DNA of 64,000 bases from Microbotryum violaceum (GCA_001244265.2 CDLV01000004.1:1736001-1800000), one strand, 5' to 3'; positions 24,000 through 63,171 are shown, numbered from the stretch's first letter. Numbers and translations are program-made. The notes: generated from the letters alone by a model not told the origin.

Positions 24000-24840
24000 T
24001 CGCGGCATCATCACGATGAACGCTCTGAAGACGGCGAACAATGAGCTGGTCGAAAAGGTATAGTTACGAGCAACGAGAAGATGAGTATCCACTTTCTCGT
24101 CGATGTGGAGGAGGAGGACCTTGCTGGTGGGGCTGAAATGACCGATCAGGAGGACTGTGGACCTGGTCATTGCCGAAGAGTTGGAGGAGAATTGCGAGGG
24201 AGAACTTGAAGGAGGAGAGGAAGCGGAGATAGAGCTCCGACCGCGAACGACGCTGAAGGAGGCAATCTCAGCGCTTGATGTTTTCCCTAGGTTTACTATG
24301 AATGGGTACTCAGGTCCAACGGATTTGATTTCTTTTGAGCACGAGGCTAGGAGGATTTGCAGGACTCTTGTTGCCAAGCAGGATGCTGTGAGGATTCAGA
24401 CAACTATGATTTCATATTTCCAGCGTCAGTAGGTCAGGATATTTTTTCTTGGAGCTTTCAAAACTTGCTAGATGTCATCATGCCTCAGTAGAGGCCGTGC
24501 ATTGGTGGCAATTCAGTAATTCGGGCCTTCTGAATTTCCTCCCCCTCAAAAGTCAATGTATCAACTCAAACAATGCACGAAAATTCTTGATTTGCTGTAG
24601 GAAGCTCAAAAACGGAGTTTCAGGTCATAATGTAGTGATCTGAAGCCGAAGTCTCCAAGCTTGATTAGGCTTAATTTATGGGAAAATCCGTCCACCAAGA
24701 ATATAAATTGTCTCCGGTCTGACTGTATCACCCTGCACCCTGGAAATACCAGGCTGTCGGGTATTACCCAGGCGTGCTTTTGTAAATACCAGACGAGACC
24801 TTGGGTATTCCCCTCTGAGGGTGGAATTCCCCGCTCTCTA
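24000..24840 (+). mobile_element. pogo/CENP-B-like transposase C-terminal remnant
   Basis: Acidic stretch followed by TLKEAISALD...IQTTMISYF, resembling pogo/Tigger C-termini. Possible terminal sequence near 24820-24840. Confidence 0.45.
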
Positions 24841-25309
24841 CGGCCCTCTTCTAGAAGAGCGCCACTTCAGGCTTTTTGAAAAGTCTTACCCAAGGGGCGG
24901 TTAATACCCGTCACCCCGCTACAAACGTCCCTAAAAATAAGTGTTCCGTTACCCCGGCAAAGTCGACGTGCAGCATTTGACGTTCCCTTTGTCCCAACTG
25001 GTCGCGCGGCGGGTGGCAGGTATTAATTAAAGTGTTGGCCGCAAGCTGCCGTTTACCGGCGCGCTCACAAAGGGGAAGGAGGGTCTGTGATCTGCAATGT
25101 CCAATTCGATCGTCAGAACTTGCAAGTCGTTTTTGACCGTGAATCTAAAGCTATTTGCACGCTGCAAACACTTTGTCGCAGAGGTGAGATCTATTACACG
25201 GTAAGTATGTAGATGACTGCCCAGCGAGCAACGCCAAGCTCCTCCATCCTTTCAACCTCGAGGTCAGGCTTCAGGCAAAGTGATGCTCAACCGGGGTGCT
25301 GGCTTTGAT

Positions 25310-27540
25310 GTTTATATAAGTATGGTTTGTGCTATGGCATAAGTTACACACTGTGTTGGTTCAAATAATAAAATACAGCACGCTTATTTTTATTTCGAAA
25401 TAAAAATAAAAAAGAGGCCAAAACAGCCCAGCCCCGCTTCCTTTTTTTTTTTGCGCGCAAAAAAAGCAGATGAATTTCCAGTTATATATTATGCTTATTA
25501 TCCCTAATCCTTTTTTTTATTTTTATTTTTTATTTTTTATTTTTAGCAAAAATAAAAAAAAATAAAAAGAAAAACAGAAAACTGTCCCCTACTAGCTTGT
25601 ACTCTTCAAAGGCTATCCTATTAACTGAAGAAGCAATCCCCCCTTTTCATCGAAGATGAAAAAGGGCTGGGACTTGGGCGAGTATTGCAGAGGAACTACT
25701 CTGTTACAGAGTCAATCTGCAGCCTAATGATTCCCTTCTAGGGAAAGAAGGGTTCAACAACTAATAATTAGGATTAAAAATCTTTATTGACACAAGTACC
25801 CTGCTATTTAGAAAAAGTGCATAATCATTTCTTAGAGGAATTGAAAGAGTGTTAAATGTTTATGAGGATAGAGAACTGGCCCAAAGTAAATTGGAAAGTG
25901 AATTAGTTAAGTATAATGAAAATTATTTTAAAATGTGCTTTCGCCTGGGACTAAAAAAGGGAAACAAGTGACTTGTAATTGGGTAGTTATGAAATCTTAA
26001 GGAAGAAACTTTAAAATATAACCAGCAAGATTGTTTAGTTTTATATAAAGTTCTTGAGGATTCTTATTTAACATTGCTTCAGCACCATTTCATAATTGAG
26101 CACCAGATGTATATGATGGTGTACCTACAATTGTTACAACATGAATTGCTGTAATGCCTAAATTTCTATTTTTGTACTTTTATTAACTTTACAAAATTTA
26201 ACTCCTGTAAGTTTACTCACTGGGCAGGAAGGGTTCTTATTTGTTGGGCAAGTAAATGTATGACAAGCATTTTTATGACAACTAGCTAACTATTATTTTA
26301 CTGGTGAAGATTTTAGAATTAAACAGTCTTCAGATTCATAGACCAATAACTCAGAACGGCGTATCAAAGCTCACCGTTCAACCTGTACCAGCTCCTTGTT
26401 CAACTAATGAACTAGCTAATAGTAAAATATGGTTTTGCAGCTAAATCTTCCGTGAAGTATAATACACGTACTACTCGTAAATAATATGCTGGTTTAGTTA
26501 CTAGTGCAGGGCGTAGAGGTGTGGCTAATAGGACTGTGTAAGGCCCGTGCGCCTGGGCCTTAGGAAGAGGGGACGCGCGCCTGGGCACTCTTAGTCTCTC
26601 TCCAGCGACTGATACGAGTGTCCAGGTGAGCACAAGGTGGATCAGAAGGCATTGTCATACCAGCGACTGATACGAGTGTCCAGTGTCAATTCTACATACT
26701 TTGGTCCTGTGATCCTTGTCGTCGTCGCTCAGGTGTACACTCCAACGGGGTGTATTACAGACTGATGAGGACAAACTTTATGCATTGAGTATCTCCTATT
26801 CATTTCTAGCTATGTTTATTGGATTAATTGATGTTATTTTTACAGGATAGACCTATTATGTCTAGTTCGTTCGGTTTTCATTTTTTTGCTTGTTTTTATT
26901 TTTATTTTTCCTTTTTATTTAGATAAAAATAAGCACAGATAATTTCAACATTTTCAAGACATAAATAGCATACACAAATACACACCGAACAATGCTTGCG
27001 GAATTGGTCTAACCGAAACTTCTGGCACCGAAATTTGTTTCCACTAGTAAAATAACTTTTACTTCTAGCTACTGTGTTTTTAAGATATTCATTTAGTAAA
27101 CGATTCTTTTCTCAATTTTTCACAAGTACACCTGAATTCTTAAGTGGACCGCTTCTTTTTCTCTGAAAAAAAAGGCCAAGCTGGTCAAAATAAATTTAGT
27201 AGTTGAGCCAAACTTGGGCACTTGGTGTTGATGGCTTATCTCTTGACTTTGTATTATTAACTACATTTACATCAAAAGAGATTCATTATGATTAGACAAT
27301 TTCAAACAGATGGGATTGAAACTAATAAAATATGAGAAATGGTTAAGTCATATTTCTAGATCCCCACGATTTTTAAATAAAAAGACACTCTCTTTCTAAC
27401 AATTAGGTATCTATCTGAATTTGAAAACCTATTGGTTAAGACCCTTTTATGTGTATTCCTTCCCACTTTGGCATCAAAGCTTAGTGTCAATGCTGTACCC
27501 TAACATCACGCGGAATTTGAGATTGCATACCTTTGTTTTC
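25310..27540. other. Mosaic nuclear insertion of mitochondrial DNA (NUMT)
   Basis: Abrupt AT-rich block. Contains cox1-like SLVEQGAGTGW(TGA)TV (-, 26373-26410), nad2-like AYYLRVVRVLYF (-, ~26455-26491), LAGLIDADG-like SFLAMFIGLID (+, ~26800-26833) and nad4-like WALGVDGLSL.FVLLT (+, ~27210-27265). Confidence 0.8.
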
Positions 27541-27569
27541 AGACCTTTGACCTTCCATTCTATCTTTAC

Positions 27570-28476
27570 TAGACGCAGGAGCTCCGAGTGGACCTCAAGA
27601 TGCAGCATCTACAAGCCTTTCTGGATTCAGCACCGGCGCAGCTGCACGCGTCTTGTCCTCGACTCAACCCCTCATTGATTGACGGCGACCTGCCCACTGC
27701 CCCGCCAAGCCGCACTATATTACGCTTTAAACTTTCCGACCAGGAAGGAATTTCTTGCATACTCTGGGAGGACAAGTTCTATATTACAAGCACTGACATA
27801 CTGCGGATTATAGCCTTTCGCCTAAATCTGCTGGGTGGCCCCGGGCCGCTTCTGTCATGGAAGAAGCTTGAAGGCGGTGTGTTCAGCGATCTTCGAAATC
27901 TCAAAGAGGGACGTGGTTCGTTAATGTTGGAGTCCAAGGTATGGCAAGTCATGACTTCCTCACCATCGCTGGTAGCGACTGATAGAATTGCCACAGTCCG
28001 AACTTCTGCAGCTTTTGTTCCAGCATCGATGCGTCCGCACTCAAAAGAAGCAAAAGATTTTTCTCTGGCAAAGTGTTCCCCATGAGCAATTGTACCGTTC
28101 GGCCGTCAACAGACACGGCGTGCTTCCATCCGCCGTTATACAGCAGCCGAGGCTGTTAGGACGCTCAAGCAATGCGTCCAGAGGCGTCCACTCAACACAA
28201 CAGCAATTGGTGAGCGTTGGACAAAGAAAGAAGGCGCTCTATGATGGCATGTCTGATCACGGTAGTTATAGCAGGAACAGACTCTCCAAAGTCATGGTGC
28301 CACAGCAAAAGGCCCCAACAAGAGCTTTGCATGCCCTCTGGCTTCCTGCGACCGCAAATTTTATCGGCAAGAGCATTCACTGCGCCACCTCAGAGTTCAC
28401 ACTCAAGAGCGACCACACACCTGTTCGCAATGCTCCAAGGGCTTTGCTCAACTTGACAATCTCCGGGCCCATGTGA
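27570..28476 (+). CDS. STE12: Divergent STE-domain (Ste12-like) transcription factor; intron 27939-27996; 5' start uncertain
   Basis: FLDSAP...ISCILWEDKFYITSTDILR...KKLEGGVFSDLRNLK|SELLQLL...CVRTQKKQKIFLWQSVPHEQL matches the STE domain. A GT...CAG intron joins the two ORFs. Confidence 0.82.
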
Positions 28477-28624: not shown

Positions 28625-30380
28625 CTATAAATATGGAACCCCAAGCTGTTTTCTAAACATGTCGAGTGTGAACTCCACGACGAGGAGCAGCACTCCGCCA
28701 CCAGGCGCGAGTCGGAGTACCTTTGGCACAAACCCTGAGTAGAGCGCACCAATGCCCTCCTCCCGAGCGATGAGCAGGAGAGAAGGGAAGGTCCAATTGT
28801 ACTTGGGAGTCGATCCTGTAACCTGTGGGTAGCATTATAAGAGTACAATCCAGAGAGCGAAGGTCACACAGATGGAGGAGCCGTAAGTATGCCAAGAGTT
28901 GCTCAGCGTTTTGATCAACGACATGAAAGGCACGGCAGGATCGGCATCGCTACGGACCTTGATCAAGTTCTGCATGCGGGATTTGACCACATCGACTGAT
29001 TTTTGAAAGCGATAGATCCGAGGTCAGTCCAGACCGAAGCAAAAGAGGACATAAAAGAAGAAGGCAAGCACCTAGATTGAGTAAACGTACATGGGGTGTT
29101 GAAAGCCGTTCCAACAAAGCCACCAATGGCACCAGACACGAAATTGTTAAACAGCTCGCCAGATTTTTTCTGTTTAATACAAGCCGTTAACGGCTTGATT
29201 CAGCCCGCAGAATGTCAAAACGCAGACCAAAACCGGGTTGACGAACCTCGGCCTTAGGCATCAGAGCGCGGACTTGGAAGATGCACCCAAAGTATCCTCC
29301 GTTCCATGTCACGTGGCTAAAGTGTAGGGGGCTCGCAAAACAGGTCAGCCTGAGCAGCAGAGGTTTGCGGGTCGACGTACCGCCAGAACGTAGGTTCGAG
29401 ACCGGCATAGAGGCCCAACAAGCCTTCCTTGCGCACAATCTGGCCAACAACATCCATTGGCCCCTTATAGGTGCTATTCTTGTCCTGCAGTCGGATCTTG
29501 ACCAATTCAAAAGGCACGACCACCACACTTTCCGTGGCCCCAGCGCTGCAACCCATGAGGATCGACAGCCCCTGGGTCATCTTGTCAGTTCCAAGTGCCG
29601 ATTTGTACGTATTGCCCCAGAAATCATTGGCAGCGAACTTGACGGCGCGCTTGGGTGCCTCAAGCATCAGCGGCGGCACGAGTCCCCGATATAGGCGGCC
29701 GACGCTGATCAAGGAGGCAGCAGTTCCACATGAGTGTCCCTGTTCCGAGCCATGACCGGATCGCATCTGTGAACTGACCCCTCGCCAGCGATAATCTTTT
29801 TGAAGCAGTTGACCATCCCATTGTAATGCTCCGCACCAGCGACAGGTTTTCCGACCTGAAGTTGCATACGGGTCTTGACCTGCATGGCCCGGGGGGGGGG
29901 GGGGGCAGATGGCAAAGGGAGAACAGAGTGTTGGCTTGGCTGAGACGCAACTCAACGAGACCATAGGGCATCTTGTCGCGCAGACTGACCACATCTGGTA
30001 GACGCCCGCGATTGCACACGAAAACGGTTGGAGCAGACGCAACGGAACGAGGGGAGAAGGAGAAGGAGAGGGTGTGGGAGGGAGGGATGATCAGCAGCGA
30101 TAACAATCGTGGTTCAGGCTGTGACATGCCGAGAAGACGAGAGACGGACCTAGCGGGTAGAGGCACAACAGTTCGGTGACACCAGCGATTGCACCCGCAG
30201 TGAACTGATAGATGAAGGGCAGGGCTGAGTCGATTTAGCAACGCGGTGGGTGGAGTGATGGAGTGGTAGAGTCAGCAAAGGGGACCCTGTCAGGCCCGTC
30301 ACGGAGATTAGCCATGCCATTGTCCGTGATGGGGTGGGGACTGACGCTTCCTGTTTCGCGTGACCGGTGTCAAGTCATTG
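28625..30380 (-). CDS. ODC1: Mitochondrial 2-oxodicarboxylate carrier (SLC25, ODC1/ODC2-like), multi-exon; first exon uncertain
   Basis: PLPFIYQFTAGAIAGVTELLCLYPLDVVKTRMQLQ, LEAPKRAVKFAAND, PFELVKIRLQD, PFDVVKSRMQ and GFVPKVLRLAPGGGVLL. Three PxDxxKxR repeats; TAG stop at 28625-28627. Confidence 0.9.
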
Positions 30381-40838: not shown

Positions 40839-43800
40839 TCAGGGCTCGAGTCGACGCGACAGTTCGCTCATCACATTGGAGGACAAAGCCCGAAGCTTCA
40901 AGCACTTGAGGTACCAACGGGCATCGGGGTCGTAAGGGTAACCCTCTGCGAACTCCATCGCCGCGAGCACGTCTTGAACGATACGCGCTTGCACTCGGAA
41001 CTTGTGCACGTTCACCAGGGGTCGCATGCGTAAGGAGGGTGGGAGAGGTGCAAGCGAGTTGAAGGCGTTCGGGTCGGCGAGCGAGACCAGCGTCCCTTCG
41101 GCATCAACTTCCGCAGGTGTATCGGTCGAGGACGGGTCGAGGAAAGTGGGCAGTTCGGCGTTCATCGTCAAGTCGCGAAGGAAGAGGCCTGTACCCAAAC
41201 AGGCCCATGTCAGTCCCTTTCAGAGATCCCGAGCACTATGAACAATGACCAGCGACTCACCGAGGAAAGGGATGCACCCGAGAGGCACAGGGGCTCCCTT
41301 GGTGCCTTTGACGCTTCGGTAAGGATCGTTGGCCGACAAGGGTCTCCGTTGACCAGGGGGACCGTACTCGGATATGAGCGCTTTGGTCACTTCGCGCAAG
41401 TGCTTGAAGTTCTTGAGGTGCGAGACGAAGACTTGCATGCCGCGGAACTTGCGCATCTCCCACGAGGGCACGCGAGCCCACGTTTTCTTGAGTCGCTCGA
41501 CGTCATGCAGCTGCAGCCCATGGATGATCTGGGTCAGAGTTTGAAAGTTTGACTGGCAGTAGCACTTGAAGGCGAGTCGGATGAATTTGGCGATGAGCGC
41601 GACTCGCTCGTCTGGGTTGGCCGTGAGCAAAATCTGTAGAATGAGAGAATTGGGAATGAGCACAGCTCTGCGAATCGCTCGAATCGAATTGAATGTACCT
41701 CGGAAGCGACCCAATTAGCAGTCAGGTTGAACCTAGCAATCACGGCTTGTACCGCCGAAGGCGATTTGCTCTCCCTACTCTCCTTGGCGAGTATCTCAAC
41801 CCGACGGCGTTCCTTCAGATGCGCCTCCCAGTCCAGCACCTCGATTTGAGGCTGCGAGCGATCTCGCCAAGCCCCACTAAACAATTCGGGCCAAGCGAGT
41901 GCTCGGAGCATGTCGCGTTCGATGAGGTAGAATTGTTGGGCAATTACTTCGGTGCGGCAGTGCAACAGGAACGAACGATGTCGTGGCGGTGAAGGTCCTG
42001 CGGATGCACGGGGACCAGCAGCAGTACGGGTCGAGGCACGAGCAGGAGTCCTGGCCAGAAGATTACCGATCGAGGCTTTGCGCGGCACAGCACGGAGTGG
42101 GCGTGATACGGTGCGATTAGGGCTGGCCGCTACGGGATGATCGTCAGAGGGTTGTGAAGGGTTCGAGGAGTTGAGAGATACCACATCTGAAGCCACAATA
42201 GCAATCTCGCAAGCTTCGAGGTTAGTTAAGGTCGGAGACACCGGCTGCTCGACCGACACCGAAAGAGAAGCTAACGTCGAAACAGAGTCGCGAGGTTCCC
42301 CGTTGGCGGACGCCCCGTCCTGACTTGCAGTCGCGAGCCAGGATAGACCTTGCTTCTTCCGCTCGCTTTTGACCATCTGTTCCTCGACCCTTTCAGCCTT
42401 CTTGCGCTCGCGGGAATCGTCGACGATACCTTCCAGTCGTCTCAGAGCGGCTTCGATATCCCCGGGTTCCTCCTCGTCCGACTCGACTAAACCATCGAGC
42501 AAGAAACCTTCGAGGCCAGGCAAAACCCCTGGTTCAGCACCACTGACTTCGTCATCGACCCACGAGATCATCATCGATTCTCGATCGTGGCCCTCGAACG
42601 AGGGTCGGCATGATGAGCCATACGAAGAGACCGTCTCAGTCGACAAACGATGGTGGGCGGTCGGTTCTCGAGGTACACTCGTAGCGAGGCGCAGATTCGC
42701 CGCTCCGGGCAACCGTTTGAGCGTCCTCTTGACTTCGACAACATTCTCATCCTCATCTGACAGATCGACGTCGTCGAGTTCGAGACAACCGGATCGAGAG
42801 GAGTCGTACTCGTTGTAGGATTCAGGTTCAAAGATCGGAATCGACGAAGGTGGGAAGAAAAGAGTATTTGGTGGTTTGTGAGAAAAGTCCGGATCAGTCG
42901 AAGAGGCTGAACTCGGCCAGCGGCCCTGAGATGCAGATTCGTCAGGTCCTGCGCAACCGATGACGTGGGTCGCGGGTGCGCTTTCGACGGGTAGCGATTC
43001 GTGAGGTGCGGTGACCGAAGGTGCTTGATCTGACTCTGAAGTGTCGAGCTGATCACCTTCGAGCTCTGCGACCGGCTGTAACGAGCCCGCCTCGACGTGC
43101 TGCGATTGCACCTCTCCACTTAATATATCCTCTGGATCAGCGACGTCGCGGGGTATGTTGTAAAAGTCAAGGTACCGGTCGAGGCCGTCCTTGATCCACA
43201 ACAGATCACCTGTGTCATGCTGCTCGTGTTCGACCGCCTCGACCGCCTCTGCGCTCGCTGATGGATTCGAGGAACTGGATGAGGCTTGGGCAACGTGGGC
43301 ACGATTGCCGAGCATGCGTTTGAAGCGGCCGATCGTCCCCAAGGCATTGTTGATGGATCGTGTTACGGCAGATTGTTCTTCAGGTAGAGGGATCACCGAT
43401 GCCGGTCTCGTCGTGAGCTTGTCCTTGTCCGAGGAGGTGGGCAACCGAGATCGATCACGAGGCGCTCCTCCGAACCCCTTGGGAGCGGTTGGGCCAGACC
43501 CCATGGCGGGGACGACATCGAGATCAACATCTTCATCTGACAGGGCGGGCGACTTGGGCATGGGCGGCAGGTCAGTCGATTGTCTAGCGATCGCGGCGCG
43601 AGCTTCAATCGTGTCTGTCGGCCCAAGTACGGCGTGCATGTCCTTGAGCCGTCGCACGAGCTTCTTGAGTCCTTTGATCAAACGTTGATCTTTCGGATTG
43701 TTCCTGATCGCTTCGTCTCGACCTCTTTTATTCAGCCACTCCGTCAACGTCGTTCTCAATTCTTGATCGGGGTAGAAATCGAGCACAAAGTGGTTCAGGA

Positions 43801-45723
43801 GCCAATAGCGAATGACGACAAAGGTGCGTACGCGAACAATTCGTCGTGCTGCATCGTCAGCGGGCGATGAGGGCGGTTGCATTGCCCACTCAAAACGTGT
43901 AGTAAAAGCTTGAAGAAGGTGAACGGGTTGAAGGTATGTGCGGTAAGTGAGGAAGAAGCTGGCCAGCAGTTCGACCTCGATCTTGCTCGTCAGTTCGGCG
44001 ACGAGGCGTTCGACAGTCGCGGCCATGAGCACACGGTGAGGAGGGGCGAAACTGCCGGGCGAGGAGCGGCCCGTCATGGACGACGAGAGAGGGCATTGAA
44101 TCGAGGACTGTGAACCGACTGAGTCTCGAACCGAGGTGCCGGGCGACTCGCTCTGATGGTGGGGTTGACTGAGGCTCCACCGACTCGACGACGAGGCTGT
44201 AGCAGGGCTGCTCATGACGGGGCTCGCGACGGCCGGCGCGGGAGCAATGCTACCTCGGCGTTGACCCCCGTCCGAACGTGCAACATTGACCCGACTGTCT
44301 TCGAACGGCTTGGACGCGACTCGTGCATGTCCTCTTCGATCTTTGACTCCCCAAATAACGAAGCGCGGATCATCTCCGGGAGTTGAGAGCACCGTGATAT
44401 CTTGCCCCGTCGTTCTGGAAATGTCCGAGGCCGAGGAGCCTACAGAGGCCGACGAGGCGGAAGGGTGACGACCAAACCGGAAGATTGGTTCTCGGGGCAG
44501 TGAATGAGGTTCGAGGGTATCTAGGTTCTGAAGCAGATCGTAGGCCGTCCAGTCCTTGTAGCGCGACTGATGCGGTGAAGGCATTTGGAGCGGGTCGTCC
44601 ACGGCTTTGGCGGTTCGAATCGAATCACTCGAAGCCACTTCTCGCATCTCGCGGCGCCGAGACGGGTCGGCAAGGAGAAGAACAGGGAGAGACGAGGCGG
44701 TATCAGATGCTGGGCTTCGAGGATGGAGCGAACCTTCGGCCAGTCGCACGCCGGCGCCGAAAGGGGTGCTCGAAGACGGACTTGGCTCACGGTAATGCGG
44801 CGTCGCTGGTGGTGCATGGCCTTCAAGTTCATCGACTACTGGGACAAGCCATGCACGACAACGAATCAAATTGCTAAGCTGATATTCCCCGTGCCGTGAG
44901 ATGACAAGCGCGCTTCTCCACTTACAATCTTGCGGCAGATCACTCTTGTCCTCGTCATTCACGTTGGACCACGTCTCGGTCTCAGGGGTGAACCTTAGAT
45001 GAGCCGTGCCGCTCGTGCTCCATCCCAGTATCCTCCCCAGTACATCGCTCTGCTCCCGCGATGCAGTTCGAGTCGTCGTGGACTTCCAGCCGTGACTTTG
45101 CGATCGTGCGGCGCCGAGGGTTGGTTGACTTCCCGAGCGCTGGAGAGCCGTGACGGTGGAGGACTTGATATAAGGCGAGAGACCTTCGTTGTCCGATGCG
45201 GTTTGTCGTGGGTACCGTTCCGGTCGTTGTGTAGGCCCGGAGCGAGGTGTCGGCTTGCGAGGCGATGGGGTATGAAGGGCGATCGTTGGAGCTGGTGCTT
45301 CGGAGGAAGCGGAGCAATTTGCAGGAACTTGGGAGGTTGAAGCTGTTGCAGAGCCGCTACTTGCTTCCCAGGTCGATGCAAGAGCCGGCGTAGGCTGGGA
45401 TCGTGGTCTAGTAAATGTCCCGAAAGGTGAGACAATCTAGAGTCAGTCCGTGCGCTGTGGCGACCACCTCGGCGAACGCCGACGTGGGGTTAGTGTAATG
45501 ATGCCGGCAGTGGCCCATTCGACTGTGCGTTCGTGTTCTTAACTGACCTGATACGGTAAATGGTCTTGCCATTCGGTTCGACGCGTGCCTGGACGTAATA
45601 GACGGTCTGTCCTCCGTCCTGGCTCGCGTAGTGTTGTGCTAAAGCCTGCGCAGCCGATCGCGAGGTGGTTTCGACGAACGAGCCGTCCAGAGCGACACCT
45701 AGATCATGCTCGGTCCTTGCCAT
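40839..45723 (-). CDS. LTE1: LTE1-like Ras guanine-nucleotide exchange factor (REM/RasGEF_N plus CDC25 domain), multi-exon
   Basis: AATVERLVAELT...FFLTYRTY...RVRTFVVIRYWLLNHF..DF (REM); IAQQFYLIERDML, ARFNLTANWVASE, KFIRLAFKCY..NFQTL, GCIPFLG|LFLRDL, LVNVHKFR (RasGEF). Introns have canonical ends. Confidence 0.88.
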
Positions 45724-46084: not shown

Positions 46085-49000
46085 CGCGACACATGTCCGC
46101 ACATGTGCGGATACTTGATTATAGGTCAATACATGACGATATCGTATCTTTTCGATATCGTAGGACAACTATATAAGTATTTCTAGGTTGAACCTGCAAG
46201 AAGAACATGATACGATATGTGCTGCAAGACTTTTGATGACTTCAAATTCTCATGTGCGGACCGCAGCCTCATGTGCGGACATGTGTCGGTCAAGTGTCCG
46301 CACATGGCGGTCTGCGGTCCGCACTTGGCTCAGCAAAGTGCGGACCCATCCGGGCGCACTCCGAGTCCGCCTGAGAATCTCGAGCAGTTCAAAGAAGAGA
46401 CATACTTGCTACTCTGTTGGCTTCATGTCGTATAGGGACTTTGCTAACTAGACTTTCAGAGTTGACGTGGATCATGGAAATGTCTCTAAAGTTGTATCAT
46501 TAGCAGGAGCGCCCACTACTACAAAGCTGGCTCAGAAGATCACGACTCTGCAAAGTTGAGACAGACCTATCAAGCTTAGTGGCTTTTAGCATTGCTACAT
46601 CAAAGGTTCTCTAACTCACCGATTTGAAGCCCTCGAACAAGACGGAAGCGTCTTGCATCTTCCAAACCCCTTTTCCCTCATCAAAGGACCCGTCCAGAGG
46701 CATTGTTGACACTTTGGACGGAAGGTCGGTGAGAGCCTCGGAGTCGTAGTATAGGCCCCACAGCTCGTGCCATTGCTGGTCCAGCAGCGCATTGAACGAA
46801 GGTAGCAAGTCATATGATTCGCGTTCTAGCTCGTAGAACAACATAGTCACCAACCCGTTGGTGGTCCTGTTGCCGGTTGGATAAGCGAGAGGACCGCGCA
46901 TTGCGTCGAAGTGGTAGCGAGCCGCCTCTTCCCCGTAGCCGACGATTGCATCCGTAGCGAAATGCTCACCGCTGAGAATGTGGCGCACCTCTGAACGAAG
47001 AGACCAAACGAGCTCCATTTGGCCCGAGACAGCCAAGCGAAGTTCACGCGGGGGTTACTCGTGGCGAGGATACTGGTTGTTGATGTTGAATACAAGCACA
47101 CGAGGAAGCGAGGTGATCGAACGATCTGCGGGGTGTAAGAGCGTCCGATGCAATCGCTCTTGTGATAACGACGCCCAGTATTTTGTTTCTCTACGTCCGC
47201 CATTGCTGGTTGCCCAACAAGTGAGCCGAATACCTCCGACAGAGTTGGCTCGCTAAGGTTTAGACTCGATAGTAGGACGGGCCAGTCGAGGATGAAGTGT
47301 CGTCTTGGCAAGATCTCAATTTGTACGCACTGACAAGCCGAGCAATAACCAGCTCGCTGAAAGTGGGTTTCGATCTGAACTCGGGCCGTCGAGGTTGGCA
47401 AGTGATCCCGCGGTATTGGTATTGGTATGTGGTCGACCGTAAAGGTGTAAAGCGACACGAGCCAGTTCTGCGGACGACAAGAGCGATCAGCCCAATGCGG
47501 ATTTATGTTAAGCAAAAGAATCTTGATCGACTGACCGATGGGTTGCTGTATTCCCCTCGCTTGAGCGGAGTTGGATAATCACTCTTACGTTCCTTTGATA
47601 AGATGATCACCGAGCTGATAATCCGCTCGCGCAGCTTGAAGTACGCATCGGATGCATCCTTTACGGGTTTCGAATCATAGTCGTAGGCTAGCTGCGTGTA
47701 CTCGCGAATGAGGCTCCAGATCTCGAGGGCCAGTGTCCGACCTTGAAGTGCGAATGTCTCCTCCATTTCCAGCTTGGCACACATGGAGGGGTTGGTGATA
47801 AAGAGGCAGTCCATGTGCATTGGCCACTTTTTCAGCCCGGTGGCGACCGAGAGCAATCCAACCAAGGCTGAATCAAGGCAGCAGGAATGGTTGTGCCATG
47901 GACCTTGGACAATGCCAATCTGTTTGCTGCATTGCTGCATTGCTGCTCGGATCGAAGCCAAAAGTCTTCGTGGGTTGTGCCAATCGAGCTGCTTTGGGGT
48001 TCGAGGGGCGTCGAGCTGGATACTGCCTTCGGCGGAGATAATTCCAAGCTTGCTTCAGATGTGGATAGGAACTTGGAGTCGGCAGCTGTGGGTGGCGCGA
48101 ATCCCGAATTTGGCACAGGCTGGACATGTGCCACCGTTAAGTCTGACTCCGGCTTCCCTAAGGCGGCGATCATCCGTTTCCGAGGTACACGCTAGTTCTT
48201 GCCAGACGATTGGGGTTTTTCCAATAGCGCAAGAACTGTTAGGCAAGAGAGATACCGCTTTGAGTCGGGTAGGTTATACCCCGCAGATCCGCGCTTGAGC
48301 AGTCAAATACGTACATCTCGACCTCTCTTCCGTCCACTCGTTGAGCGCCTTCACTGAAAGAGGAGTCGGTCGTATTGATCGCGCCGCGCCGCTCGATGGG
48401 CGGCCCGAAGATTTGGCACGCGATTTGGAAATGGAAGCTTCCTTCGGTTTTGTGGAGCCGTCAGCCTGGTGCCCCGTCCTGCTGCACGATTCGACATGAC
48501 CGGATGAGCTCCACCGCCTTGATTGCGTCAATTGAAGAGCAAATAAGTCGTCGTCCGAATCGTCTTCATCGGATAGCGCTTGAGAAGTCATCATAGGCCC
48601 ATTTTTGGAAACCGCTTTGGCCGGCCTTGACTGCGCACCGCGCAGCTTACTTTTGCTTCGCGGATCGACGGGTTGCTGCCGTGAGCGAGCTGAATCTATC
48701 GTGACCAAATCGTCGATCTCAATCGGTGAGACTGGCATGGGCCGCGACAACGAGCTGGGCGGCGCGTTTGATGACTTGGATTCGCCTGTCCCGGGATAAC
48801 GAGCAGGAGAAGCGAACGTAGCTGACGCTTCTGGCATGTTGGCATCACTGATATAAGACGAAGGCACTTCTTTGCGTTCCTTGATCTCTTTCATGTGAGC
48901 GCGGGTGTTGCCTCGCTCGTGATAGGTCGAGCTCTTGACGTAGCCATCTGCATGGACGGGATGAGAATAAAGACAGACTCAATGGTGAAGAATGTTCTGA

Positions 49001-52000
49001 TGCAGGCGCGCCGCACTGACCAGCTGCATGCATATCAATGTTGTCGGTCAGATTCGCGAAGTCAAGAAGCCGCATCACTCCTTCCACCGGGCCATATCGT
49101 TCGTTGCCGCACGAATGTATCAGAAGCCAGTGCGACGATTCTACCGCATTCGTAGTGGTTGCCACACCGTTGTTCGCCGTTCCACTCAAATTCTTGAACA
49201 CCACACTTCGTATCGCCGGTCTTGTCCACCACTTGATCCAGCTTTCGGCCACGGGGAACTTCTCGATAGCGAACTTGGCGAGAGCGTCAATTGCTGTATG
49301 AGACTTTGCTGCGCGCATCGAATGGACCAGTGAGGCAAAGTGGCTGCGCTCGGCCGATTCGGCGAAATGTTTGAGTCCAAATCTTCGGACTTGCTCAATG
49401 AAGTGAAAAGCGCAACCTTTAGCCACCCTCTCACCGATCTTGATAGCCTCCGCCGTCCACTGCTTTTTTTGATCGTCGGTCACATTGAGTAGGCCCACGT
49501 CTGCGATTTTGCGTCCTACATACCACTCTACTATGGCTTCACGGAGACCAAGTAGTTGCGCAGCTGAGTAGTCGACAACAAAGGCGACGCCATTGACGAT
49601 CTCGTCTAGAGTGCAATTGCTATCGTTCAGGATCTTGAACAGTTGCAAAAAATGCTGGCGGTAGAAACTTGCTCACTCATAGTTGCCGACGGAGTACAAG
49701 ATGGGGAGCCAACGACGAGCGCTGGGTGAGTAGCAGACTGTGGCCAATAGTACGTATTTGTCCCGGAAGAAGGTGTCATGAGCGTCGGTAGGCCACCCTA
49801 TATTGCCATCAGCAGCTTGTTCGGCGATCGAGTCGATGAGTCGTTCTCGCATCAAAGGGGTCTGGATGCCAATTGACATGTCGGAGCTTGCTTTAGCGTC
49901 CGGGTCACTTCTTCTTCCTGAAATCGTTGAATAAGCCTTCCGTCTCTTCCTCTCAGGCTCGGTCTTGGCCTGCTTCCGTGGATCGGGGTCGCGGTCGGAT
50001 GCGAGGAGCGGATCCTCGAAACCACTGTCGTACTTGGTGTACACCACAAGCTGATGATCGACATCTGCAATCACGCGCACGACTGAGTGAAGACCATCCT
50101 GTAGGGCGCCACGCTTGCTTTGACCAACTCTTGGCGCGTGTCTGGCAATCGTCCGAGTATTGTCGTATAGTGGACAGATCTCGGAAGCGGACGGCCGGTG
50201 TCGTGGGTCGTCGGGGAAAGCGGTCATCTGGCCCATGCGTAGCTCTGCCGCAGATGCTTGGGGCGCGGCCGAACGCAGACGTTGCAGTTGTTCCACCTGT
50301 TCCGATGACGGACGAGAGACAGGCGGAGGGGGATGGTTGTGGAACCCCGAATGCAAAATGAAGACCTCGCCCGGGCGAACCTTGCGTTGCGCTTGAATAA
50401 TGGTTGCCGAACAAAGTATGTGCTTCATCGGCCCGTTGCAAGCTGAAATTGGACAGAGCGGGATCTGCGATGATGGGCGCTCTACGTTTGGAGCAATCGC
50501 TTTGCGCGAGGTGAGTTTGTTGGGCGCTCCCTGTGTACTGTCGAGCGCTTCGGCCTCGTCCCCGCAATTTGCCCTCCTTGGTACTGAGATCTTTGTTGGA
50601 GGTCGACGCTTGCCGCAACAAGATCGGTCGCAACAGAGAAACACGCCCAAGCAGTATCTCTTGCTGTACTTGACATACTTGACGTTCAGTTCCCGACGAG
50701 GGCCTTGCCAGACACCACCAGAGTCGCTTCGATTGCCGGATGCTGAGAAAGACCACAGATACGACAAGCCACCATTCGACATTGGAACGGCAACGACGTC
50801 GTCCCAAGTTCCGTTGGGTCTCCATGAATCGAGAACGACCTCTCTGGGGTATTCATCGAGCATGAGGTCGGTCATCTTCATTCGTCCTTCGTTGTACTTC
50901 GGTAAGTCCGGGTAGTCTCCATCTTCCGGGTCATTCGGATATTGTACGTCGTTCGGATGGGTGTGCGATGACCGGGAGTAGCGGTGGCCATCACTTGACT
51001 TGCGGAACTCGGCTAGTTGACGATTCTGCCGTCGCACCTCGTCGTCGGCCTCCGCTTCGGCTATAGGACGGAAGCTCGATGCTGACGCCGCCTCGCCAAG
51101 ATGCAGTGCGTTTTCAGCAGTCCTGAACAGAGTGTCTGTAGGCGGGGGTGTTCCAGTCCTGCGCGCATCTTGTAGAGGTGCCACTTGCGAGCGAGCGGGG
51201 ATGGAAGTGCAATGCAGAAATTCATGGCGATCTTTAGGGTGCTGGTAGATCTGAGGTGACGGTTAGGCGGTAGCAATTTCAGTAAGCGAGTTGATTCTGC
51301 AAGCGTTGTTTGATGCCGAAGGGAAGCAAAGACTAACCCTCATTGACAGTACAGCTTCTGCTGGCAGCGTGCCGAGGTCGAGAGCGGAGCTGGTCGACTC
51401 AAGAACTTGGTCCGAGAAATCGGCCCTGGCAGCGAACGACGCGAGCTTGACGTATCGAGAGGAGATGAAGATCTGGCTGGGAGCAAACGAGACATTGGTC
51501 TGATCCACGATGGAGTAATCAAAGCAGGAGTCGTCTGAAGATTTGCATTGGAAAGAGTTTGTCAGCGATCTGCAGGAAAGTCATTAGGTGGAGCACTCTA
51601 TGATTGTCCTACCTTGGAGAGCAATTCCGAGCTCGTCAGCAACCTCGTTGAGCACATGCTGAAGGTAAACAAAACGACAGGCTCCTGCTGTGAAGTTGAT
51701 GGGGACAGAGGGCGACATTCACACCGCCACGCCACTGCAGCAACTAAGTGGCCGGAGGGAGATCGTGCTTCGACGGTCGAAACTGAGCACGTAGAGCCCG
51801 CCACACCGTGATATCAGCGATGTCCAGAGTAATGTACAGATATTGGGTTGGAAATTTGAAGACGTATCATTAATTCTCAGAGAAATCGATTCAGGAAAAT
51901 CACGAGTGGTACTGTAGGATGCCGAAATCGACGCGCCTTCTTGCGGAAGAGCCACCGATTGAGGCAATGACGACATCGTCCCCTGCGGCCGAGGTGCACC

Positions 52001-52962
52001 CAGATCGGTGTTGGAAGTGATACCTTTGAATCTCAATGTCTGATTGAGCGTTTTCGATGTTGAAAACAGAAGAGGAGATGTAGAGGTGCAAAACGGGAAC
52101 GCGTCATTGAGGATCGGAATGGAAATAGTAACCGCATCGTCGTAATGATCGTGGCTACCGTCTTGTCTGACTTCGATCTTGCTCAAACTACGGCTTAGAT
52201 CGAAGTTGATACTTTGTGCCAGGTGGTTTTGTCCCTGCATTGCGAAGGTAGAGGATGAAGGTGGGGCCGGCACCGCGCCCGTCGACGTGGCCGCGAGGTG
52301 GTCGCCAGCCTCAGCAGCAGAGATGTTGTCATGATCCGCAGCTAGCCGACACGCGAGCGGCTCGTCAAGTTCGACGGAGGCTTCTGATATGGGTGTCAAG
52401 ATCGGGTGATGCTCGAAGGTCGGTTGCTTCGGTTGCTTGCGTGCTGGGTTGGCGTACGATGTCTTCGGCGTGTTGCGAGTTGCTGAACGCGTCTGGGGCC
52501 AGCCGTCAACCGCAATTCGGCGACTTCGCAACTCCATTGACCTGAAAATTTGATCTGTCTGACTCCTCGCGAAAGAAAGCGAGACAACTGCCACGCCAAG
52601 CAACTGCTACAGTAAGTCGGGTCTGAAACGTGCGGCGGCGCGGTCCTGACTGATACGCGTCGAACACTTAAAAGTGGTCACGACGCGACTTGACGCGTTC
52701 ATTTACCGAGAGGCGCTACCGGTGCCTGCCTATCTTAAGCACATATAGCCCAAGAGAAGAGTGATGTGCTGTGTCGTGTTTTATAGCACGTGACTTTCTA
52801 GCCGCAGGAGTGTCCACAATCCTCGATATTGATACCATCTTCAGGGGAGTAGAAGGCTAATCATTCAAAACCTGCATAAGTGCGAATGGGTCCGCACTTG
52901 GCTCAGCAAGTGCGAGAGCGGACCGCAAAAGTTGAGCCAAGTGCGGACCGCAGACCCCCATG
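46085..52962 (-). mobile_element. GCM-domain MULE transposon with inverted termini rich in GTGCGGAC/GTCCGCAC motifs; outer right TIR cut by the KDZ insertion
   Basis: 46300-46350 (CATGGCGGTCTGCGGTCCGCACTTGGCTCA...GGACCCAT) is inverted at 52885-52962 (ATGGGTCCGCAC...TGAGCCAAGTGCGGACCGCAGACCCCCATG). The exact left terminus is uncertain. Confidence 0.8.
46611..51184 (-). pseudogene. GCM + MULE DDE transposase fused to a USP-fold (C19-like) cysteine protease; 3 in-frame stops and 1 frameshift
   Basis: GCM: CLGVFLC....C...RP...C....C...HILC...HSGFHNH. DDE: PTDAHDTFF, VVDYSAAQ, KGCAFHF, TTNAVESSH. USP-like: WHNHSCCLDS, CSAC, SLRSEVRH..SGEHF...YHFDAM...MLFYE. Confidence 0.8.
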
Positions 52963-53437
52963 CACCTCGGGCAGACATAAAAAAGACGCCTAAACAGGCG
53001 CGCGCGCAGCGACCCCTCACGTGCCTTCCAAGTCACTGCCCCAGCGGGGTGCAGCCTTGCTACCCCAGGGCGCCGACTTGGCCCAGGTTACACCCAACTC
53101 TCTGCTTCGAGTCGATTCTGTGTACACACAACACTCTCACAGCTGCTAGATTGATTAGGAAAGTGGGTAGCAGATGCATTCCTTCCTTCATATTTTTCAC
53201 GCATCTTTCGGATGTTGTCAATGTCACGTGTCCGAAGCGGTCGCGCGGGATTTCGGTCCCGAGATCGAAGGGTCCGAGCACACGCGTTGGCGGCAGTCGG
53301 CACGCGAGGGACCTTCCACTTGACTTGCCGCCTCACCTCGTTGCTTTCGTTACAGCTCATTGTAGCGTCGCCATCGACTGTACAGGCCCCACGGCTCGCG
53401 TTCGTCCTCTTGCTCATGCACTTGACTCGGCATCGCC

Positions 53438-56400
53438 ATGCCGCCGAAGAGAAGATACAAGTCCAAACCGTCGGTCTACAAATTGCAGGTCACCTTCTGT
53501 GCTTCCGAGTCGCGGTGTGCTACGGACGTCGAACGCTTGGCCCAACTAGGGTTCATCTCTTCGACCGCTTCAATGCCGATGACCGCCTTCTCATTTCGAC
53601 TGGTCGAGCAGGCCCACGCAAGCTGGAAGGTCAGCCCCCGCGATATCACCGGCTATGCGGACGGCCTCGAAGAGTATTACTCCCGTTGTGGGTGGGGTCG
53701 GGGTCACTATACGGGACATTCTTGGGTGAGTTTGGACGCCGCCATCGTCTCATGGGCACATGCTTAAAGCCTGCCTTCCGCGCATACAGGACAAAGACCT
53801 TCGGAAGCAACGCGATCGACGAGTTACCGCGCTCTCGAAACATGCGAGGAGGACAGCGGGGACCTTCTCGCAGGCACCGTCGATTCGTATTCCAACAAGT
53901 GTCCCGCGTGCTTCGGGCCAACGCGGCTTAATCAACCTTGTCACGACGTCACATTGGATTGCGTGCTTGCATACGACGGCAACTTTCAGCAAACGCGTGA
54001 GAAAAACTCGAACCACGACCAGATTGTTCAGGACACTTTCTTGGGTGAGGAAGAGGTTCAGACGATGAAGGCCGAGGTTGAAGCTTCGGTGCGGCCGACC
54101 AAAAAGGTGAGTAATGCCGCTCTTTGCATTTGCCTTAATGGGATCGCTTACCTCTACACCCACCCACCGTCATAGGCGTGCACAGAGTCGTGGAAGGCTG
54201 CCGACGACGGAGCTGGCTCAACCTCGTCACGAGTAGTCGACACCGGACTCGTTGCCTGCGTATACCGTCATGACGTGAACCTGAAAATGGTCAATCTTGA
54301 GAGGTCTGGTGAAAAGTAAGCGCGGAGCTGTCTGGCGGGACTTAGTCGCTTCCGCTTTCCTCTCGAATCCCAGTACTAATGCGCAGATTCCCCTCCGACC
54401 ACTCAGATTGTACTATGCGCTTGCCATCCTCAAGCACATTTCAGAGCGCCTTCCTGAACACGCCAAGATTGGAGTCTTATACGACATTGCTTGTAACTTC
54501 AAGCACCACATTGAAAAGGTTCGCATCTATTACGACGGGTCCCTTCCTCCTCAATTTCGTTGGCACTGACCAAATGCGCCTACTTTATCATTTGTCACCA
54601 GAGGCAGCTCCTGCCAAAGCTTTTCAAGCGACTGGAGTTCGCCACGAGCGTCTTCCATGCATACGCCCATAGCTGGTCCTGCCAAGTCGAGTTCGACCCG
54701 CGCCTCATTCCGAACTTCGGGCTGACTGATGGAGAGGGCTGTGAGCGATTGTGGAGCGGGCTACGGTCGCTCATTCCCATCAACCGCCCCTCGAACAAGT
54801 CCCATCGCTTCGTCAACCTGGCCGTCCGTATCCAAGCACTGAATGACGCGACCGTCAACAAGCTGGGTAAGCCGCACCTGGATCGCAATTATCTCAATCA
54901 CAATGCTGACACTCGATATGTTTTATTTAGGGGCCTGGTTCTATCGTCGCTACCATGAGGCAAACGACAAGGGTGTCGCTGCTGAGGAAGAGCTAATAGC
55001 ATCATTGCCTACGATTCGAGGTTGACCGAAGATGCGCTCCGCCGCGAGTGGGAAGAACAGCGACTGGCGCAAGTGCCAAAGACAGCTGCGCAGCAATCGG
55101 AGGCGGATCGCCTGAGGGAGAGCGACCTCTATGGACTTGTAGAGAGCCTCTACAAGATTGAGTCGCGAATGTACGTAGATCATCTGGCCAGGCCGTCGCT
55201 CATTGTCTATGATTCTGACTTGCTGGGCTTCTACAAAGGGATACCGAAGAGCCCGATTCAGACGTCTTGGAATCGCTAAGCGCCAAACGCCGCAGCCTCG
55301 GGATGGACATCGATCGAGCGGCAACGGCACAGGCTCGTGATGTCACGGGCCTCTCGTCCAGAGGTCAGTTAATGTGTGTTGCTCACATGATTGCTGTAGC
55401 TTGCACTGATAGCTTAGGTGCTGTGCGGAACTTCGACATCTGTTCCAGTGCTCTGTGGCGTTGCGCAAATTTCATCTCGAGGTGATTGCCTACAAAACCA
55501 GTCGGGAGAAGCTACTTTCGACGGGTCGTGGCAAGGGAGGTGCAAAGCTAGGTCAACGAGCGGTCAGCAAAGCTCGTGCTACAGACGGCAAGATTCATTC
55601 TGGCGCGGAAAAGGCTCGCAAGACGTACAACAAGGCCGTTGAGGCCTTCCGTCTCGCGATGGGATCAACACCTTCGAGCCTACTCAACAATCTCCGGATT
55701 TCCGACAGCTTGAAATCTGCGATCGACCTCGATGAGACGGACCCGTTCTGGCAGGACGGCTTTTTCACGCACGTTGAAGCTGCTTGGGCTGTCAATCCTT
55801 GGGTCAAGCGAGGAGTAACAGCTGGGCGAGCCGAGGATCGAGTCGGTGAGGAGAAAGCGCGGATCGGCGCCGAGGTGCGGCAAGCTTTGGCTTGGCTCGA
55901 AGATGAAAAAACTTGTCTCACTAGTTGCCAGACACTTTGGACTAACGTGTCGGGTAAGTTTTCGACACGGCGTGCTCCATATCACCTCTTAGGTCGCCCT
56001 AACATCTTTCAAACCATCTCAACAGATAGCCTTCCTGAATCCATCGACCCAGCTGATGCCAAGTCCATATTCAGCACTGAAGATGTTGAAGAGATCCGAG
56101 GCCGCGCGCTCATCCTACTAGATCGCCGGATGGAGCTTCTGCAGCTGCGCGAATGTTCTTGGTCCCAGAACAACTATTTCTTCGATGTTTGGCTCGAGAC
56201 TCGCGGGCAGTCAGAGGGCCATTCCGAGCCCATGCCTCCTGCACTGTCAGAACTTCGTGGTTTACATCAACGATTGAACGCAACGGGAAGAGCTGTCAAG
56301 AAGGCAAAACATCGCGAGCGACCTGCACATAATCGATCCGGAACACGCGGTACTATGGAGAGATCTGGCCTCGACGACTCGGCGGGGCCTCCACCGCTGG

Positions 56401-61200: not shown

Positions 61201-63171
61201 GGGTAGAGGTCGCGCGCGCTTGAGTCCTCGGCGTCAAACTCTTGCAGCAAAAGCAGAAAAGACCATCAGCGATGCGCGGCCTGCCTCCTCGTTTTGGGAA
61301 ACTTGTGCGGCCCGCGACGTTTGGCAATCGTGAGCGGAAGGCTAAGTAGTATTTGGCAAACCTGCCGCGTCAAAGACAATACCCGTGCTGTCGGAATTGT
61401 TTCCTCCTTGTTCGACCATACTTGCGATGCTTGCGAGATTGTTCCTTGTTGGCGGAGCTAGATATGGGCCATCGATGCGTCCAGGATCGGGGAACGTAGG
61501 ACGGTAAACTGGTTGATTGGACAAAGCAGATCCCGGAGACGATGGATAGTTGTACGACGCAGGATTCGAGATGGCCGTTACGCCAGCGGAAGTGGACGCT
61601 GGATCGGTTGCACGACGGTGTAACGTCAGAACAGACCGATGCTATACGCGATCGACGCGACGGCCACCCACGGACCCGAATAGTCGTTATATGCGGACTG
61701 ATAGGGAGTCCAAGGCAAGGTGCACGACTCGTACCTAGAGGCAGCTTATGAACCTATGTGTCAGATGTGATCGTGAGCCGGTAGTCCAGGCAGAGCACCC
61801 GTGTCGATCGGCGGCAAACATACTGCTGTTCATCGCCGGAGCGCCAAACGTTGGCTGCGATTTGGAAGGTAGTTGATGGGATTGACTCATCATGACAGGA
61901 GCAGCAAGACTATGACTGATCCGGTATTTCGAAGTGGGCGTTCGTTTCAGACTGTCGCAAGGTGACGGATGCTTGTTTCTAGTTCGTTACTTCGTATACG
62001 TAGTAGGGGGCGATTGAGCAAAGCAAAAGAATGGGCGGTATGCGCGAGCGCGACGCGTCGCGGCCCTCTCCAGCGTCTCCGGAGTCGTGACGCGTCGACG
62101 TCCCGGCCAGTCCCGGCCCCAATTGTTCCACGCGACCCGTGCCGAATCACGTGTTCGAGGTAGCGCTCTTGTTCAGCTTGCAGAGGACAATAGTAACTCT
62201 CAAAATATATGCAAAAATCCGAATGCACTATTACTCGCCGACTGTGCCTTTGTTTCCAGGTTTTCCACCGAGTTATAGTGGGAGTGAACGTCTCGGTAGC
62301 TCGACATCGAGGTGGGCATACCTCAACGTGGCCAAGTCGGCGCCCTGGGGTAGCAAGGGTACACCCCGCTGGGGCAGTGACTTGGAAGGCACGTGAGGGG
62401 GCGCTGCGCGCGCGCCTGGTTAGGCGTATTTTTTATGTCTGCCCGAGGTGGGAGAGACCTAAGCTCAACTAAGCCCTCCCTCTGGGAGGGGCTTACGAGT
62501 TATCGGCGCGCTTGGCCCAGTTGCCCTCCGAAATTTCAGGGCTATTTTGGGGTGGTTCTCTGTAACTTGGCAAGTAAACGCATTCATGCAAAAGTGAGGG
62601 ATAATATTTTTCTTTGCGCTCTAAAAATGACATACCCCAAGCGGTGAGATCTTTCATAAGCTGTGGGTGGAGCTACAACGATCCGAAGTCTGCGATTTCG
62701 GTCGATCGGGCCTCAGATGGTCCGAGCGCATCGTATAATTGGCGCGCTCATCATCGGCGAGCCTGCTCTGTTCGGCTTGATCCCCTTGCGTACGCTTCGC
62801 TGTTCTCCTCTTTTCACAAGGATTGTTGGCCACGTCAAGCGCGACAATATCTGAAACCAAAAATAATGCGAACAAGCAGACACCATACCTCATCAACTTG
62901 CCAGAACAACCGCCGCGAGGCGGATCCGTATTCGCTGAATTTTGTAGCCGCGATCTCTCGCTATGTCAATACCTGTCGTGGTATTTCAGCCCAACCACAC
63001 GATTTGGAGGCGTTCAAACACACCGACCAAATCTGTTCAACAGCAACTGGTCTAGCCTTAATCGTGTACATGTTCTCTTTCTACGACTTGCACGCGAGGA
63101 TGGCGCAGAGTCAAGAACTTGAAGCCGACTCAATCAATGACTGGATCGCCGAGCAGGTGGACAACACTTCG

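Follow-up and report, generated by a model that had tools for sequence, protein, structure and literature searches.

A 64,000-nucleotide stretch of Microbotryum violaceum DNA (GCA_001244265.2 CDLV01000004.1:1736001-1800000; "the window" below, with positions counted from its first letter) contains at 46303-52962 what is, in our judgment somewhat more probably than otherwise, an autonomous DNA transposon of the cut-and-paste kind from a Microbotryum-type fungus, present here as a decayed copy. Its best placement is in the Mutator-like element (MULE) superfamily, and it encodes one long polyprotein. In this polyprotein a GCM-like zinc finger and a DDE transposase core are followed by a C-terminal Cys/His domain (Table 1), which likely has the fold of ubiquitin-specific proteases (USPs); several weak tests agree on this assignment, none of which is significant alone. 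Intact copies are predicted to encode an active isopeptidase, a prediction to which we assign slightly less than even chances. Fusions of ubiquitin-system cysteine proteases to MULE transposases are already known; the USP-like type is likely new to MULEs, as judged from our literature search.

The first line of evidence concerns the reading frame, which the transposase and the C-terminal domain are supported to share. The open reading frames (ORFs) that the original prediction, made from this DNA alone, had joined into one protein were found at their claimed places as stop-to-stop ORFs on the minus strand. Contigs from four public runs (X1, X17, X19, and X20) were aligned to 46303-52962, and those of three runs (X1, X19, and X20) skip six stretches: 46548-46619, 47468-47535 (one end also at 47466), 48236-48314, 48948-49020, 51251-51337, and 51535-51612. 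All six have GT..AG ends on the minus strand, and because these joints are exact, we infer that the spliced contigs are RNA. The two introns originally proposed near 49020-48950 and 47535-47467 are among the six and are real. A seventh skipped stretch, 51783-51867, is a probable intron, with AT..AG ends in this copy. The X1 contigs are spliced and show 0 differences from the window in the listed pieces. One spliced X20 contig (record 22; 1,931 nt) spans 49856-47769, so that the catalytic acidic residues of the DDE core (D1, D2, and E), its CxxH motif, and the codon of the presumed catalytic Cys of the C-terminal domain all lie in a single contig.

The joining of the pieces is borne out equally by protein relatives. 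On the spliced window, P0014 and P0002 begin at the ATG, and P0002 extends to the stop codon. P0009, which covers the N-terminal region, zinc finger, DDE core, and linker, aligns in a single frame from 51769 to 48177, while the alignment of P0008 carries on through the linker into the C-terminal domain, reaching 46635. P0008, a protein of 1,002 aa from a sister lineage, is itself a gene model fused as in the window. In the spliced model of the window, the frame stays in register from the DDE core to the residues just ahead of the Cys box; the linker is 42-43% identical to that of the sister lineage, with indels.

It is very improbable that transposase and protease-like part belong to separate genes, or that the latter is a recently captured fragment of a host gene, the single frame being a read-through artefact of a pseudogene. 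One locus is annotated as two consecutively numbered models, P0009 and P0017, and relatives P0002-P0004 join the N-terminus to the linker and USP-like part without a transposase, as would be expected of separate genes. However, the frame is continuous across the junction in both the window and P0008, one spliced contig crosses that junction, and all parts are enclosed by one pair of inverted repeats. Moreover, the seven proteins returned by our deepest search are pieces of the N-terminal or USP-like parts of the element, with no host paralogue among them. As for P0009 and P0017, their consecutive gene numbers on one contig suggest a single element of this kind whose annotation was divided between two models.

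Several details of the original prediction have to be revised in light of this single-frame model. Its extent, 46611-51184, was too short: the coding region begins at the ATG at 52240, with two further supported introns (51535-51612 and 51251-51337) and the probable one at 51783-51867, and the MLFYE motif taken for the terminus is followed by about 110 more codons, interrupted by the intron 46548-46619, up to the stop codon at 46502. The TAA at 48274, read as a coding interruption, lies within the contig-supported intron 48236-48314. Removal of this intron changes the frame, and the TGA at 48055 is therefore out of the true frame, which instead holds the TAG at 48194 and then an 8-bp duplication near 47924. 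What was described as one frameshift near 47050 resolves into an indel (47120-47130) and a separate in-frame TAA (47057-47055). The TGA at 49675-49673, which interrupts ...NYE*ASFYRQ..., was correctly called.

Certain contigs contain additional joints. One found only in X1, 49605>49677, skips 71 nt (49606-49676) with GT..AG ends, including the TGA 49675-49673, and one found only in X20, 50064>50129, also has GT..AG ends. Both would break the frame and are therefore treated as minor or aberrant splices; the former, which would shift the frame within the DDE core, may reflect aberrant splicing of the mutated copy. Joints 48098>52742 (X19) and 49109>52742 (X17) skip 4.6 and 3.6 kb, respectively, share the breakpoint 52742, and are without GT..AG ends. 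They may represent assembly chimeras, or else derivatives that have undergone deletion but retain the 5′ end together with the 3′ (USP-like) part.

The second line of evidence concerns the transposase. The DDE core has the spacing D-71-D-144-E, with the motifs PTD, VVD, CAFH, KWW, and AVES; in P0005, P0007, and P0008 the CxxH lies 53-56 residues after D2 and the WW 29-30 residues before E. The core is 58-66% identical between the two lineages. In Muta1, an active MULE of Aedes aegypti, the corresponding residues are D214, D283, H307, W401, and E419, with a spacing of 69/136 (PMC5225508). Placement in MULE is thus supported as the best available, by motif order and spacing only. Two results weigh against it or limit it. 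The Pfam families MULE (PF10551) and Transposase_mut (PF00872) are absent at E<=10 from P0005, P0007, P0008, and P0009 and at E<=1 from the window ORFs, and no target-site duplication, which in MULEs measures 8-10 bp, is readable at the ends of 46303-52962, where each end abuts another repeat. A PDB profile search with the transposase part gave 0 matches. The MULE DDE core of the original prediction therefore stands by its motifs and their spacing and fails at the level of Pfam models.

The zinc finger is a comparable case. GCM (PF03615) is the sole Pfam family matching this region, and it does so in both lineages, below the gathering cut-off of 25 bits: 19.2 bits for the window (50273-50704, E 0.0012) and 12.3 bits for the sister lineage (E 0.17). 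The GCM domain as originally called hence holds as the only family match and falls short of the threshold. WRKY-GCM1 fingers have been described as DNA-binding domains in two classes of MULE transposases (PMC1702500). For the conserved N-terminal block ahead of the finger, neither Pfam nor PDB searches gave a match; a ubiquitin-like domain had been considered for this block and was dropped on that account.

The third line of evidence concerns the C-terminal domain; across 99% of its length, the versions from the two lineages share 52-53% identity. All of the boxes named in the original prediction (the Cys box, the CxxC, the His/Asp box, and MLFYE) are present, and the full series occurs in the order found in USPs: a Cys box (NxSC[WC]xDSxL), DAxxxY/F, CxxC, SLPxVxVxNI, a His box (W-L-R-S...H-F), and YHFD...LFYE. 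Every family row that covers the positions in question retains C37, H321, and D340, numbered as in the C-terminal part of P0008. For comparison with bona fide USPs, viral contigs were scanned for a back-translated Cys-box motif; this gave 120 loci, 93 complete ORFs, and, under 60% identity, 46 rows. All eight of the ORFs sampled from this set match PF00443, with E from 1e-35 to 1e-60.

Aligned with hhalign to these 46 non-redundant viral USPs, the family alignment scores 19.6 (P 0.097, probability 0.6%) and pairs the boxes collinearly: NSCWIDSxL with NTCYMNSxLQ, both zinc sites, SLPxVIVINI with PxVLIIxLKRF, the SHF His with GHY, YHFD with WYxFND, and VLFYE with YxLFY. Column shuffles average 14.5 (sd 2.6), with 2 of 60 reaching 19.6, and the reversed alignment scores 14.75. 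When the halves are taken alone, the best local match of the N half is the Cys box (P 0.12; reached by 5 of 40 shuffles), and that of the C half extends from CxxC to the His box (P 0.066; 2 of 40 shuffles). MAFFT places H321 in a column where the residue is the same in all 47 rows, and C37 and N35 on the N-x-C of USPs; it misplaces the Asp box, such that the Asp comes to lie on the USP catalytic column by hhalign only. When 608 viral ORFs, 107 of which are USPs, were ranked with the family hidden Markov model (HMM), USPs occupied 17 of the top 21 places. Finally, protein-language-model look-ups of the two lineages give 0.93 and 0.92 for UCH (PF00443) clusters, in each case the top-ranking family that has a name, on a scale where shuffled proteins reach at least 0.9 in 4 to 10 of 100 cases. 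The best three clusters for P0008 are unnamed, at 0.94; two of them are mainly from Basidiomycota, and the third is without recorded taxa.

A number of results weigh against the reading of this domain as a USP, or limit the reading of the element as a whole. UCH, UCH_1, and Peptidase_C98 are unmatched at E<=10 in a Pfam search of P0001-P0004, P0007-P0009, P0015, and two window fragments, and the family profile finds 0 PDB sequences at E<=10. AlphaFold2 run on the family-only alignment (10 rows) failed, with a predicted local distance difference test (pLDDT) of 30.7 and a predicted template-modelling score (pTM) of 0.23. The hhalign probability is only 0.6%, with P 0.097. In the reverse comparison, the viral-USP HMM gives nine family proteins P values of 0.012-0.19, and with the family HMM, 22% of the 254 non-USP viral ORFs that received a score come out at or above the median for USPs. 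At the level of residues, the second zinc site is incomplete, with one Cys instead of two, and Trp stands five residues ahead of the catalytic Cys, where the consensus of viral USPs (NLGNTC) has Asn, the residue that forms the oxyanion hole in USPs. As to the element, its relatives come from one genus only, even in the deepest phmmer search; no intact full-length copy was encountered as DNA; and the run records list RNA for none of the four runs.

Under the chief alternative, which we regard as possible and clearly the less probable, the C-terminal domain would not be a USP-fold protease at all but a lineage-specific zinc-binding or otherwise novel domain, its boxes resembling those of USPs by chance, that serves the transposase as an accessory for binding DNA, chromatin, or protein. 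The missing Pfam and PDB matches, the hhalign P of 0.097 equalled by 2 of 60 shuffles, the HMM P values, the failed family-only fold, and the shuffled proteins that also reach 0.9 in the look-ups are all as such a domain would predict. Against it, seven boxes stand in USP order, each half, taken independently, has its best local match at the corresponding USP box, and MAFFT independently aligns both Cys and His. Moreover, UCH, named beforehand as the expected family, is the best named look-alike for both lineages, and USPs dominate the top of the viral ranking. A USP fold for the domain is accordingly the reading we call likely, though unproven, because the boxes align with USP catalytic columns and UCH is the best look-alike, yet no match is significant. 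The same division applies to the USP fold as originally proposed: the Cys/His/Asp boxes do align with the catalytic columns, whereas no profile or structure match reaches significance.

Two further results were set aside. A hybrid AlphaFold2 run (5 family rows and 42 viral USPs) gave pLDDT 60.9 and pTM 0.62, and Foldseek on this model returned USP18, USP1, USP21, USP4, and others at E of about 1e-5 and template-modelling scores of 0.4-0.5; both are circular, and neither is counted as evidence. The likeness to the SUMO isopeptidase USPL1 that the Cys box had suggested was not sustained: PF15499 does not match, the USPL1 chains rank 20 and 38, behind USP18, USP1, and USP21, in the circular fold search, and nothing points to USPL1 in particular.

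All protein relatives are named Microbotryum silenes-dioicae or M. saponariae. Searches with the Cys-box ORF gave 4 relatives, with the DDE core 6, with P0002 (phmmer) 7, and with the profile of the C-terminal domain (E<=10) 7; the phmmer search, our deepest, covered 1.84 billion representatives, and neither it nor the profile search gave relatives beyond the Microbotryum family. P0008 has N in place of the second catalytic D of the DDE core (residue 94, VVNYS), and this copy, judged by that substitution, is probably not an active transposase either. In P0002, P0003, and P0004, which lie on different chromosomes of M. saponariae, the N-terminal block (...GIALQ) is joined straight to the linker (DDSDDD...) and USP-like domain, without zinc finger and DDE core, and in P0013 the N-terminal block runs directly into the latter half of the USP-like domain. 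These four proteins may be internal-deletion derivatives or annotation artefacts (a long predicted intron in the case of P0002-P0004). Such forms, in which the N-terminal block and the USP-like part occur without the transposase, may hint, together with the contig joints that likewise drop it, at a separate working module. P0011, a 978-aa model of M. silenes-dioicae with PF14223 (Retrotran_gag_2), aligns with 36% of the DDE core (66% identity) and is probably chimeric, spanning nested elements.

The window copy itself is dead, with four in-frame stops and three frameshifts (Table 1). The 8-bp duplication near 47924 is missing from contigs of three runs (X19, X20, and X1).

Table 1. Features of the Microbotryum element in window coordinates
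Feature	Position	Strand	Details
Whole transposon, pseudogenised	46303..52962	-	6,660 bp; inverted repeats at both ends, all coding parts within
3′-side terminal inverted repeat (left end)	46303..46332	+	30 nt, 97% complementary to 52933-52962; contains GGTCCGCACWTG
5′-side terminal inverted repeat (right end)	52933..52962	-	pairs with 46303-46332
Polyprotein coding region	46503..52240	-	8 exons, about 1,730 codons; ATG 52240, stop 46502; spliced model
Exons of polyprotein	52240-51868, 51782-51613, 51534-51338, 51250-49021, 48947-48315, 48235-47536, 47467-46620, 46547-46503	-	
5-nt indel (~51733) and in-frame TGA (51721-51719), N-terminal part	51719..51737	-	
Conserved N-terminal block (INFTAG...LSMR), function unknown	51338..51718	-	49-50% identical to P0009 and P0010; contains intron 51535-51612
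GCM-like (WRKY-GCM1-type) zinc finger, ending ...HSGFHNHPPP	50273..50704	-	Pfam GCM E 0.0012, 19.2 bits
DDE core	49139..49786	-	D1 49786-49784, D2 49573-49571, CxxH 49414-49403, E 49141-49139
In-frame TGA	49673..49675	-	R in relatives
Low-complexity linker, transposase to C-terminal domain	47925..48947	-	contains intron 48236-48314; continuous frame
In-frame TAG	48192..48194	-	Y in relatives
8-bp tandem duplication (GCAGCAAT twice)	47917..47932	-	frameshift just ahead of Cys box
USP-like domain (about 340 residues; fold likely)	46830..47904	-	interrupted by intron 47468-47535; Cys codon 47883-47881, CxxC 47353-47342, His codon 46964-46962, Asp codon 46907-46905, MLFYE 46844-46830
Frameshifting indel(s)	47120..47130	-	X19/X20 contigs: +1 at 47120, -3 at 47130; relatives' alignment changes frame
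In-frame TAA	47055..47057	-	CAA in contigs of X17, X19, X20 (plus-strand G at 47057)
C-terminal tail beyond USP-like core	46503..46829	-	contains intron 46548-46619; matches ends of P0002 and P0004

The termini are marked by a 12-nt motif, GGTCCGCACWTG, which occurs four times in the 64-kb window versus 0.01 expected by chance. Two of its sites lie within the inverted repeats, one is located 33 bases inside the right repeat, and one is about 40 bases outside the left repeat, in a small palindromic structure. This structure (46087-46302) adjoins the left inverted repeat, has 19-nt perfect inverted arms (46087-46105 and 46270-46288), and carries at 46250-46275 an outward-facing copy of the GTCCGCACATG motif resembling a terminal inverted repeat; it may be a derivative like a miniature inverted-repeat transposable element (MITE) or the end of a second, related element. 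On the other side, a repeat of about 935 bp begins exactly at 52963, abutting the right inverted repeat. It occupies 52963-53897 and, in inverted orientation with 99.5% identity, 1547-2480, and has a partial third copy of 121 bp at 62330-62450 (96%). The three copies stop at an identical base (...CCCGAGGTG), and the repeat is probably the terminus of another mobile element. It is because of these two neighbors, the 935-bp repeat on the right and the small palindromic element on the left, that no target-site duplication can be read.

The flanking host genes are ordinary: a 1,300-codon ORF with RasGEF_N and RasGEF domains lies at 41534-45436 (-), and a mitochondrial carrier ORF at 29317-30090 (-). 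Elsewhere in the window, G+C falls to 0.40-0.43 at 24001-28000, compared with 0.50-0.60 in the remainder.

Intact copies of the element could work as follows. The zinc finger would bind the terminal motifs, and the DDE core would excise and reinsert the element. The C-terminal domain, as a very divergent cysteine isopeptidase of USP fold, would travel with the transposase and act either on that protein or on chromatin at the element, taking off ubiquitin or a ubiquitin-like modifier, with the outcome that the transposase is stabilized or host silencing is countered. The originally proposed removal of host ubiquitin or SUMO marks is likewise an inference. We advance only tentatively the full proposal that intact copies encode a transposase with its own active, extremely divergent USP-type isopeptidase, stripping ubiquitin, SUMO, or another ubiquitin-like protein, and that this would be the third independent recruitment of such a protease by MULEs, after OTU and Ulp1.

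It is distinctly unlikely that a USP-fold protease would have an internal task instead, cutting the 1,730-residue polyprotein into transposase and accessory proteins rather than acting on host ubiquitin or SUMO marks. USPs are known to cut after a ubiquitin-like fold and not at arbitrary linkers, which counts against such processing, as does the polyprotein itself, in which no ubiquitin-like domain or Gly-Gly site was identified, the Pfam and PDB searches of its N-terminal part being empty. What the idea has to recommend it is the long single frame with a low-complexity linker, together with a precedent from Medicago, where this role was proposed for an OTU domain that is fused to MULE transposases (PMC1702500).

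The wider significance of an isopeptidase-like domain in this transposase lies in a recurrent pattern. DNA transposons repeatedly acquire proteases that belong to the ubiquitin/SUMO system. OTU and Ulp1 types occur both in MULEs and in Helitron-like elements, with UCH as a further type in the latter. Ulp1-bearing MULEs exist in plants. To our knowledge, the role of such transposon-borne proteases has never been shown. A transcribed fungal MULE with an in-frame USP-like domain would be a compact test system, in a genetically tractable basidiomycete or yeast, for whether these domains stabilize the transposase, process a polyprotein, or act against host silencing. In addition, current profile libraries miss the sequence family that this domain marks; should the USP reading fail, the domain would still be a conserved, element-borne domain of unknown fold.

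A literature search gave no report of a USP or UCH domain in a MULE, within a reach that excluded supplementary domain tables (e.g., PMC11417382), which could bear on the point. Two wide-ranging studies, one surveying how MULEs evolved and the other screening DDE transposons broadly, do not use the words ubiquitin, protease, or peptidase in their main texts (PMC6446971; bioRxiv 10.1101/2021.09.26.461848).

Among known systems, Muta1, which makes 8-9-bp target duplications, differs from the Microbotryum protein in being only 504 residues long, in having a FLYWCH finger, and in having no protease domain (PMC5225508). Helitron-like HLE2/Helentron elements stably carry a Pfam UCH domain (PMC11417382), and the Microbotryum element resembles them as a mobile DNA element carrying a USP-type domain, an identity that is likely, from sequence, in our case. 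As described in that report, however, theirs are rolling-circle elements with Rep/helicase and a UCH domain recognized by Pfam, whereas ours is a DDE transposon with a domain missed by Pfam UCH. With the USPs of cells and giant viruses (PF00443, peptidase C19), the domain shares the order and approximate spacing of the Cys box, a DAxEF-like box, two zinc sites, LPxVL, the His box, an (F/Y)(D/N) box, and LFY; it departs from them in its lack of a significant sequence or profile score, its Trp for Asn, its incomplete second zinc site, and its fusion to a transposase. The closest parallel is provided by MULEs with a C-terminal papain-like protease, in particular a Medicago group of MULE transposases fused to a C-terminal OTU protease (PMC1702500). 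Unlike the OTU and Ulp1 MULEs, the Microbotryum element encodes a protein of about 1,730 residues, with an extra 340-residue N-terminal region and seven introns, its protease-like domain has the USP order of boxes, it is unmatched by Pfam MULE, UCH, or above-cut-off GCM, and it comes so far from one fungal genus. Like the WRKY-GCM1 MULEs with OTU (PMC1702500), it combines a WRKY/GCM finger, a DDE core with CxxH and W, a C-terminal domain resembling a protease of the ubiquitin/ubiquitin-like system, and terminal inverted repeats.

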